Part shown: one piece after another, positions 32,651 to 33,960 of the stretch | How the letters are laid out: each line of letters opens with the position of its first letter | Position numbering within the stretch: position 1 is the first letter of the stretch | Origin: a bacterium | GTDB lineage: Bacteria; Patescibacteriota; Microgenomatia; Daviesbacterales; UBA10151 | Assembly: GCA_021786105.1 (NCBI GenBank) | Contig: JAJYNW010000010.1 | Location: 26,301-90,300 of the forward strand | Direction of reading: 5' to 3' | Length of the DNA stretch: 64,000 nucleotides | Made by a program: the position numbers and the translations under genes | Notes under the pieces: generated by a model | Databases searched by the model: none | Told to the model about the DNA's origin: nothing | The model's input: the letters and a program-made list of their open reading frames with translations, nothing else

Positions 32651-33960
32651 GTTTTTATATATTCTTCTCTTTTAGGGCCGGTGGAGATGAGGGAAATCTT
32701 AACTCCTAAAAATTCTTCTATAAATTTTATGTAGTCCTGGCAGTTTTGGGGGAGATCATTAAAAGATTTAACATTAGTGATATCTTCTGTCCAGCCGGGG
32801 AATTCTTTATAAATCGGAGTTAGCTTTGTAAGTTCCTGATAACCGCAGCTGCTATAAGGAATTTTATTAGATTGCTTCGTCGCTTCGCTTCTCGCAATGA
32901 CAGAAGGAGGGAGCTCGTATCCTATGCAAACTTTGATATTTTCTAAACCAGATAAAATATCAATTTTGGTAATAGCAATTTCCGTAACTCCGGAAACTGT
33001 GCAGGCAAATTTAGTTGCCTCTAAATCCAACCAGCCAACCCTTCTGGCTCTGCCGGTAGTTGTGCCAAACTCGGCACCTTTTTGTTGAAGGTGTTTACCA
33101 ACTTCATCCGTTAATTCAGTGGGAAATGGGCCAGAACCAACGCGGGAAGTATAAGCTTTGACTACCCCTAAAACTTGGTTAATTTTTTGGATCGGTACTC
33201 CTGCGCCGGTATTGATAGCTCCGGGGATAGTATTGGAACCGGTGGAAAATGGGTAAGGAGAGAAATCTACATCCAGCATTACGGCTTGGGCTCCTTCCAT
33301 TAAAATCTTTTTATCTTCAGCGATAGCTCTTTGTAAGAGTTGGAAAGTATCGGTGATGTATGGTAAAACTATCTCGCGAAGTTCTTTAAGCCGGGTTAAT
33401 TCTTTTTCGATATCAATGGGTTCAACGCCAAAGGTTTTTAAAATCGCATTTTTAATTTTGGCTTGAAATTTAAATTTTTCCTCAAATAACTCCCAATTTT
33501 TTAGTTCATAAATTCTGATGCCATTATAACTAACTTTGTCAGCTAAGGTTGGTCCAATGCCGCGGGCAGTAGTTCCTAATTTGTTTTCGCCCCGGGCATT
33601 TTCGTAAGCAATATCTAAAGCTTTGTGGTATGGCAAAATTAGATGACATCGGTCGGAGATAAAAAATCTGTCCTTAAACTCCATGCCATCTTTTGAAAAC
33701 ATTTCAATTTCTGAAACCAAAACTTCCAGATCCACCACAACGCCATTGGCAATGACGCATTTGGTGTTAGGATGTAAGATTCCTGAAGGGATTAAATGCA
33801 GTGGGTATTTTTTGCCATTGGCGACAATGGTGTGGCCGGCATTATTGCCGCCATGAAAACGGACCACATAATCAGAATTTTCTGCCAGAAGGTCAACAAT
33901 TTTCCCTTTACCCTCGTCGCCCCATTGCATTCCGAGAATAACTGAAATGTTGTCTTTCAT
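32647..33960 (-). CDS. purA: adenylosuccinate synthetase
   Basis: [12 protein letters not shown]-loop and GNNAGHT motifs. Carries an in-frame repeat-derived insertion ([11 protein letters not shown]). Confidence 0.9.
32870..32903. repeat. in-frame copy of the TGTCATTGCGAG..AAGCGAAGCGA element inside purA (minus-strand sense TGTCATTGCGAGAAGCGAAGCGACGAAGCAATC)
   Basis: It encodes ~11 extra residues relative to the PurA alignment around the conserved PGW motif and shares blocks with 20121 and 19243. Confidence 0.5.

Follow-up and report, generated by a model that had tools for sequence, protein, structure and literature searches.

A repeat-derived, in-frame insertion in purA of a Daviesbacteria genome and its likely origin from a REP-like hairpin element

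We describe an insertion of repeat DNA in purA, the gene for adenylosuccinate synthetase (AdSS), in a 64-kb window (the whole 64,000-nucleotide stretch analyzed, from contig JAJYNW010000010.1 of a Daviesbacteria genome). The closest described relatives of the inserted element are the repetitive extragenic palindromes (REPs) tagged with CGTC, which include dRS3 of Neisseria (Di Nocera, De Gregorio & Rocco 2013, BMC Genomics 14:522; PMC3733652). Such REPs carry an unpaired CGTC tag (with the variants TGTC and CCTC), a stem opening with complementary A-T at positions 1 and 2, and a 3-nt unpaired tail with the consensus CCA; in the families CGTC-1 to CGTC-4 the stem is a continuous 8 to 9 bp and the loop 4 to 5 nt (PMC3733652). 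The R. conorii palindromic elements RPE-6 and RPE-4 are CGTC-1 and CGTC-4, respectively. Inverted dimers with spacers of 20 to 100 nt predominate, intragenic units are known, and the peptides encoded by REPs listed in the supplement include VIPAKAGI, SFPRKRES, and DSRFRRND; Di Nocera et al. argued that many REPs act as RNA elements and noted that there is "apparently … no dedicated transposase" (PMC3733652).

By its anatomy the purA element belongs to this CGTC/TGTC-tagged superfamily, with which it shares the TGTC tag, the AT-starting stem, the occurrence of inverted doublets, and in-frame intragenic copies; a short tail is present as well. It departs from the described families in that its stem is interrupted (5 bp, a GA/GAA internal loop, and a variable helix of 2 to 8 bp) rather than continuous, its tail is CTA or CYC (C-Y-C in most copies) instead of the CCA or, in CGTC-1 copies, CCA(T), and a pyrimidine leader of ~10 nt precedes the tag. 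Its host phylum, Patescibacteria (the candidate phyla radiation, CPR), lies outside the five phyla of the paper, and its peptides are missing from the paper's list of intragenic REPs (PMC3733652). A continuous 8- to 9-bp stem was seen in other copies only, namely that at 7101-7123 of the window, which with its 8-bp stem, GAAA loop, and CCA tail is a textbook CGTC-1, and the CGTC-1 inserts in purA of relatives. The latter, translated as VIPAKAGIH, were identified as CGTC-1 both by sequence (GTCATTCCCGCGAAGGCGGGAATCCAT) and by the encoded peptide.

Three other systems invite comparison. The RPE-1 palindromic repeat of Rickettsia, 100 to 150 bp long, is reportedly found in frame in housekeeping genes (see PMC3733652 and PMC1779305). 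The purA insert resembles it as a palindromic repeat that is translated in a housekeeping gene, placed at the surface, and compatible with function, and differs from it in being 42 nt long, in belonging to another sequence family that crosses phyla (RPE-1 being confined to Rickettsia), and in sharing its site with several repeat families. The small dispersed repeats said to occur in heterocyst-forming cyanobacteria are likewise very small hairpins (~21 to 27 nt), inserted in genes as well as within one another, and have no known transposase; their sequences differ, yet the purA family occurs on plasmids of Calothrix, Tolypothrix, and Aulosira. REPINs have a GTAG head and are linked to the gene of a REP-associated tyrosine transposase (RAYT), which has REPs on its flanks (Bertels & Rainey 2011, PLoS Genet; PMC3116915). 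As in REPINs, singlets occur here beside inverted doublets that fold into long hairpins, and the singlets may be remnants of doublets. Membership in the REPIN/RAYT system was rejected, since the head is TGTC rather than GTAG and a search of the window and of 2 Mb of related loci found neither a RAYT homologue nor an IS200-like gene.

In-frame insertions of REP and RPE elements are already established, and the purA insert is a new example, not a new principle. Our reading, to which we assign a probability of roughly 0.85, is that the insert is a translated REP-like singlet in a surface loop of PurA, comparable to RPE-4 and RPE-6 of Rickettsia, that the enzyme is otherwise intact, and that the insert is most likely a passenger.

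The insert and the enzyme that carries it

The gene was assigned to purA by Pfam (PF00709), by homologues in the PDB (E ~1e-118), and by a 100% match to the database protein P0001; the top database matches were from Candidatus Daviesbacteria (Microgenomates, CPR). All AdSS hallmarks (PF00709) were found in the protein, i.e., the P-loop GDEGKGK (residues 14-20), GHT (42-44), the aspartate loop GTTTGRxRRxGWLD (299-312), the guanine-specificity motif (T)KxD in the form TKID (331-334), and S(T)GP in the form STGP (426-429), together with PGW (388-390). The flanking motifs GTTTGR.RR.GWLD, PGW, and STGP, which an earlier reading of the sequence alone (the sequence-only reading) had described as intact, were all located. 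An AlphaFold (AF2) model with a mean pLDDT (predicted local distance difference test) of 80.6 matched the crystal structures of B. anthracis and E. coli AdSS at template-modeling (TM) scores of 0.88 to 0.91. PurA retains all its catalytic motifs and the AdSS fold.

The same reading had proposed an in-frame, repeat-derived insertion in this otherwise intact gene, and this proposal is supported. The 33-mer TGTCATTGCGAGAAGCGAAGCGACGAAGCAATC, produced by 0 of 100 shuffles, was located at 32870-32902 (-) inside the 437-aa open reading frame (ORF) and is translated in frame. The coordinates given for the insertion (32870-32903) proved too narrow, the element-derived stretch comprising 42 nt (32869-32910) in which the leader CCTCCTTC precedes TGTC. 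HMMER alignments to the AdSS of Y. pestis and B. anthracis showed gaps of 11 to 12 residues exactly here, in agreement with the ~11 extra residues claimed, and the net gain with respect to close relatives is 12 residues (36 nt).

Close Daviesbacteria orthologues are typically 422 to 425 aa long and have just a β-turn, L-[N/D]-G-K-S, at the insert site. The turn, as [K/E]-L-[N/D]-G-K-x-I, was found in 107 of the 120 nearest PurA homologues, which lack the extra segment. The solved AdSS structures all lack it too and, like 150 diverse AdSS representatives, have an x-[D/N]-G-x turn. Far from being conserved in distant homologues, the segment matching residues 341-372 has 20 to 21 residues in 123 of these 150 representatives versus 32 in the window. 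Since the turn without an insert is spread across orthologues and outgroups, the empty state is taken as ancestral. The DNA of empty alleles reads TAY AAA TTA AAT GGA AAA TCN ATT CCN TAY, and the window reads TAC GAG CTC CCT CCT TCT GTC ATT GCG AGA AGC GAA GCG ACG AAG CAA TCT AAT AAA ATT CCT TAT. With 42 nt of element-derived DNA and a net gain of 36 nt, ~6 nt of host sequence must have been lost or replaced. No target-site duplication was recognizable at the purA junctions.

Mapped onto the AF2 model, the insert falls at a β-hairpin tip, in a loop predicted with low confidence: a strand (residues 341-349) is followed by a coil (350-365, pLDDT ~64), after which the chain returns, so that the insert lengthens the hairpin tip. 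The insert belongs to a repeat family, lies in frame, is absent from most orthologues, and sits in a loop. On the opposite strand, a 63-aa antisense ORF (32897-33088, +) begins at an ATG internal to the element; it is probably spurious.

The repeat family and its hairpin

The dispersed repeat has the layout GTCATTGCGAG…GAAGCAATC. With no more than one mismatch, GTCATTGCGAG occurred seven times in the window against 0.60 expected, a number reached in 0 of 100 shuffles; the copies are at 9337-9370 (-), 18278-18309 (+), 19262 (+), 20072-20097 (+), 20121-20152 (-), 32870-32901 (-, the purA copy), and 39677-39708 (-). The sequence blocks that had been said to link the purA stretch to palindromic elements at 20121 and 19243 were found, and the copy at 20114-20153 showed 83% identity over 40 nt. 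Related hairpins with the same head (GTCATTCTGAG…, GTCATCCTGAA…, GTCATCCCGAT…) lie at 7101-7123, 28591-28614, 28637-28662, 36125-36150, and 36170-36195, and the element density of the window is ~1 per 5 kb. The tag is TGTC in 10 of the 11 hairpin copies and TGCC in the eleventh (20122-20152). Stems begin with ATTCT, ATCCT, or ATCCC in the other families of the window, and the purA copy has ATTGC…GCAAT. Each of the three inverted doublets (20072-20152, 28591-28662, and 36125-36195) gives a long hairpin on folding (z -4.7 to -6.3), and single arms fold no better than shuffled sequence (z -0.2 to -0.7).

The family is not confined to this genome. A scan of IMG/VR with the pattern GTCATTGCGAG-N10-24-GAAGCAATC showed that at least 120 viral contigs carry the purA-type repeat, and the 120 contigs listed yielded 155 copies with 120 different centers, many of the copies with an inverted partner on their 3' side; the exact purA 32-mer was present in two unrelated contigs (L182 and L226). 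A GAGG variant of the 32-mer was identical in 32 of 32 bases to plasmid DNA of Methylosinus trichosporium OB3b and 89 to 97% identical to plasmids of Methylocystis, Calothrix, Tolypothrix, Aulosira, and Halomonas. On these matches, the family crosses phyla.

The consensus fold of the copies is GTC-(ATTGC)-GA-(G…variable helix…C)-GAA-(GCAAT)-C, with an outer helix of 5 bp, a variable inner helix of 2 to 8 bp that often contains tandem G.A pairs, and a loop of 3 to 10 nt. Among the 120 distinct centers, the anchored pairs at positions 0, 3, 4, and 5 were Watson-Crick or G-U in 98%, 86%, 86%, and 82% of cases, respectively, with at least four pair types, versus 17 to 43% in a control with slid partners; positions 1 and 2 held Watson-Crick or tandem G.A/A.G pairs. 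The hairpin is thus conserved across hundreds of copies with compensatory change. GCGNAGC, the motif at the tip of the purA copy, forms an extraordinarily stable DNA mini-hairpin (PMC13037366).

Conservation extends beyond the hairpin. In 151 independent IMG/VR copies, GTC is preceded at -1 by T (66%) or C (30%), the leader positions -10 to -2 are 65 to 77% pyrimidine, and GCAATC is followed by Y at +1 and C at +2 in 68%. The copies in cysS and purL of the window carry the same kind of leader. No Rfam family matched the purA repeat at either gathering or permissive thresholds, and a literature search by sequence and peptide strings returned nothing relevant. The element is accordingly a cross-phylum TGTC stem-loop, with an interrupted, G.A-rich stem and a leader, that stands outside the four described CGTC families and Rfam.

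Copies between genes have a consistent placement. Their ATGAC end adjoins the purine-rich Shine-Dalgarno region and start codon of tig, ybeY, the M16 peptidase gene, purH, and purC, and the same arrangement was seen in the phage contig L183; a role in cis for these intergenic copies upstream of genes is possible. The ATG in the element head (…CAATGAC) was also taken as the first start of ybeY, the M16 peptidase gene, and purC (9329, 20148, and 39704, +). The resulting N-terminal extensions are probably false; the YbeY domain begins at residue 34 only. For CPR annotation and phylogenetics this is a warning, as element ATGs yield false starts and lineage-specific "indels" are repeat DNA.

The purA junction in relatives and the origin of the insert

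Inserts at exactly this junction were found in 12 of the 120 nearest PurA proteins, all beginning with Leu-Pro and always with the purine-rich strand as sense; in a thirteenth protein (P0120) the insert lies a few residues upstream. They are REP-derived, belong to at least three families, are nested or tandem in some cases, and are scattered over ~10 lineages. DNA was recovered for nine filled alleles, the window included. An arm of the ATTGC family is present in the window and in L084, where a second element, GTCCTGAGCGAAGTCGAAGGATG, is nested in the arm center. L086 has a remnant, GTCATTCCCACC, followed by a new pyrimidine leader and a full ATTGC arm. CGTC-1 (GTCATTCCYGCGAARGCRGGAATCCAT) occupies the site in L087, L090, and L294, a CGTC-1 variant in L295, half a CGTC-1 followed by a leader and a full CGTC-1 in L088, and GGCCCCGAGCGAAGTCGAAGGG in L089. 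In a neighbor-joining tree the filled alleles appeared in ~10 places, mostly with empty sisters, and two sister pairs (P0002/P0007 and P0108/P0115) carried different REP families at the same junction, which points to turnover in place. What is new here is that one purA junction holds at least three REP families in ~10 lineages, with nested and tandem intermediates.

Non-REP indels were found at five other places of the PurA alignment, and REPs at this junction only. A selection filter contributes, because loop length varies across bacteria, but it fails to explain this restriction. We also considered that the native site might mimic the REP 3' arm plus tail (GGAAAATCCAT versus GGGAATCCAT) or form a hairpin of its own; this was rejected, as the resemblance was seen in 3 of 14 empty alleles and equal matches occurred elsewhere in the gene. 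Separately, P0044, P0067, and P0094 share an 8-residue insert, E[QR]SSQW[IT]G, after query residue 126 and before the KLGTT motif. The purA genes of L090 and L092 (encoding P0083 and P0095) are 100% identical over nt 61-960 and 58 to 87% identical from there to the end, and their downstream genes differ.

Two further genes of the window have been hit. In cysS (17285-18652), the family copy PSSVIASPEGVRQS is part of the linker that joins the catalytic domain to the DALR domain, where the 120 nearest homologues have many different inserts, some of them clearly REP-derived (VILGTRQLAG…, VISNKVRD…SARNDKK, and VIARPQSGVAIK…IPRDDN). In purL (26950-29736), an in-frame REP heterodimer is found at residue 546; at this place other elements are present in the syntenic relative L084 and none in L093. 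This doublet (28591-28662, +) is an inverted heterodimer of two TGTC REP families, translated as SPVILSTAKNLEINEFRDPSLIV, and a near-identical doublet lies between genes at 36125-36195. Two more inserts were seen in purL, a hairpin specific to the window at residue 53 and another insert at residue 850. At 27097-27133 and 29491-29527 (+) the gene contains two 97%-identical copies of a different hairpin family, which lacks the TGTC tag (ATCCACCTCGAAGG…CCTTCGAGGTG); each copy is translated in frame as IHLEGVKAHLRG, and the first is missing from L084 and L093. The hot spots in cysS and purL are similar to that in purA, and in-frame REP copies are a general habit of this genome. The phenomenon is thus frequent in a CPR lineage with a genome of ~1 Mb, three essential genes having been hit in a single 64-kb window.

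In the mechanism we propose, a singlet of a non-autonomous, CGTC/TGTC-tagged REP-like hairpin (~9-nt pyrimidine leader, TGTC, AT-starting stem, short tail) would have landed directly after the Leu350 codon, at the N-G turn of the β-hairpin tip. The frame would have been kept through the insertion of 42 nt and the loss of ~6 nt of host DNA and, as the purine-rich strand has no stop in any frame, the repeat would be translated as a 14-residue hydrophilic loop. Probably the repeat moves, or once moved, in the form of a single-stranded DNA hairpin through a trans-acting enzyme. The co-varying hairpin, the strand-specific G.A and GNA features, and the mixed orientation with respect to transcription suggest selection on the single-stranded DNA form; such selection would fit mobilization by recognition of the hairpin and would argue against a function in mRNA. 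The insert itself is most likely a tolerated passenger rather than an adaptation of the protein; judged from the preserved motifs and fold, it would be neutral and the enzyme active.

Three observations weigh against the origin proposed above. First, no empty/filled pair above ~80% identity was found for this genome: the search for closer relatives with an empty site found none among the 11 Daviesbacteria loci of a genome scan (at most 79% identical) or the 4 loci of a metagenome scan, and at this distance neither the exact junctions nor a target duplication can be made out. Second, the purA copy alone scored z -0.2 as RNA and +1.4 as DNA in nearest-neighbor folding, no better than shuffled sequence; its stability would rest on non-canonical G.A pairs and on the GCGAAGC mini-hairpin, features that standard energy parameters leave out, which explains the poor prediction. 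Third, phmmer queries with RAYT and TIRYT proteins (from the PMC3733652 supplement) and an IS200 sequence had no match among 10,940 ORFs of the window and 294 loci (2 Mb). This last result agrees with the published lack of a dedicated transposase for CGTC REPs. The window encodes a single transposase, a DDE enzyme of the IS1595 family whose N terminus bears a zinc ribbon (12612-13559, -). A link to IS1595, or an origin of the repeat as an IS-derived miniature inverted-repeat transposable element, was rejected: the ends and flanks of the transposase gene are unrelated to the repeat, and the purA junctions show no visible duplication.

How the junction came to be filled in so many lineages can be explained in two ways. 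A single old insertion, or a few, may have made the filled allele; REPs of other families would later have landed in or beside the resident one and replaced it, filled segments would have spread among Daviesbacteria lineages by homologous recombination, and the insert would not stem from a new insertion into an empty purA of this lineage. This history is a serious contender, if short of an even bet. It would account for the junctions that filled alleles share (Leu-Pro on the left and, on the right, [N/D/K][K/R] without the turn glycine), although the Pro-rich left junction is equally explained by the element's own pyrimidine leader and, in the longer forms (KNKS in P0108 and KNKP in P0075 compared with NGKS), the glycine looks substituted rather than deleted. 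It would also account for the sister pairs P0002/P0007 and P0108/P0115 and for the nested and tandem intermediates in L084, L086, and L088. The identity between the filled L090 and the empty L092 breaks ~60 to 80 nt upstream of the site, as recombination would predict, but the same pattern could come from a chimeric short-read contig. The 72 residues downstream fail to cluster the filled alleles, which counts against this history and fits repeated independent insertion but neither proves nor excludes a single origin.

Alternatively, and more tentatively, the PurA β-turn and the cysS and purL loops may be DNA-level hot spots for a still-active, transposase-orphan CGTC/TGTC REP pathway in CPR, with different families landing repeatedly at one junction, in the same orientation and frame, and replacing each other or nesting. 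We hold this to be doubtful. If true, the naturally occurring alleles, from empty through filled to nested and tandem, would form a series for working out the movement of CGTC REPs; in any event, a junction that collects REPs is a practical handle on how they move.

A function of the element in purA itself, either in cis or in the protein, has less in its favor. That it acts in cis, as an mRNA hairpin causing pausing or stabilization or through the Shine-Dalgarno-like AGAAGGAGG (the complement of the leader) on the opposite strand, is suggested by the ATGAC ends that adjoin Shine-Dalgarno regions and starts in the intergenic copies and in L183, and by the view of Di Nocera et al. that REPs often work as RNA. 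We consider it very unlikely, as the purA copy is oriented opposite to the copies upstream of genes, the sole opposite-strand ORF is the 63-aa frame starting from the element's own ATG, no promoter- or terminator-like site was predicted at the element, a single arm is not predicted to be stable, and most orthologues lack the element. That the lengthened loop is adaptive, offering the enzyme a new regulatory or contact surface recruited from repeat DNA, would agree with the ORF having been kept open, the surface position, and the occupation of the site in ~10% of relatives. This we regard as very improbable: the peptides are unrelated between lineages with different repeats, which argues against a role at the protein level, and it is the DNA repeat that is conserved; moreover, pLDDT is low and the length of the segment varies across bacteria. 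Finally, although loop length does vary among bacteria, a chance resemblance of a native variable loop or a mis-join in assembly can be dismissed for practical purposes given the exact identity of the 32-mer in unrelated contigs, the result of the shuffles, and the presence of the identical 437-aa protein on four contigs that belong to no fewer than three separate records (two assemblies in ENA and the NCBI genome GCA_027424735.1), which rules out an assembly artifact.

Feature coordinates and neighboring genes

Table 1. Parts of the purA insert and copies of the repeat family in the window
Feature	Coordinates	Strand	Basis or remark
purA (AdSS), 437 aa	32647..33960	-	ORF, PF00709, 100% match to P0001, PDB homologues
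Whole element-derived insert, CCTCCTTCTGTCATTGCGAGAAGCGAAGCGACGAAGCAATCT, residues 351-364	32869..32910	-	Missing from empty alleles
Pyrimidine-rich leader, CCTCCTTC, travels with the element	32903..32910	-	Leaders of other copies, including cysS and purL
Unpaired 5' tag TGTC (variant of CGTC)	32899..32902	-	Tag definition in PMC3733652
Stem-loop: outer helix ATTGC/GCAAT, internal loop GA/GAA, G-C pair, A.A and A.G mismatches	32871..32898	-	Consensus structure, anchored pair counts
Stem-loop tip GCGAAGC	32882-32888	-	GCGNAGC DNA mini-hairpin (PMC13037366)
Short 3' tail CTA	32868..32870	-	Tail position in other copies
In-frame copy in cysS, PSSVIASPEGVRQS, same reading frame as in purA	18269..18311	+	
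Intergenic inverted doublet folding as one long hairpin	20072..20152	arms 20072-20097 (+), 20121-20152 (-)	z -5.4, -6.3
Intergenic copy upstream of ybeY, left heterodimer arm	9337..9370	-	
Intergenic copy upstream of purC, left heterodimer arm	39677..39708	-	
Degenerate family fragments: inverted 3' arm piece, then GTCATCGCGAG…	19243..19290	+	

Around purA, a 191-aa ORF without a Pfam match (32075-32650, +) overlaps the stop codon of the gene, and the gene slot on the 3' side of purA varies among relatives, being filled by an HTH_3 protein gene in L084 and by a glyoxalase gene in L093 and L087. On the other side, a perfect sigma-70 consensus (TTGACA, 17 nt, TATAAT) lies at 33983-34011 (+), between the divergent purA and purP. 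Two neighboring PurP-type ATP-grasp genes (DUF1246/DUF1297, of the archaeal-type FAICAR synthetase family) are found at 34017-36118 (+) and 36204-37742 (+); the pair adjoins a bacterial-type purH in the purine cluster, and L084 and L093 have the same arrangement. Farther along, two adjacent short ORFs (52101-52487 and 52499-52879, +) each match part of the MFS transporter family and may be a split or interrupted gene.

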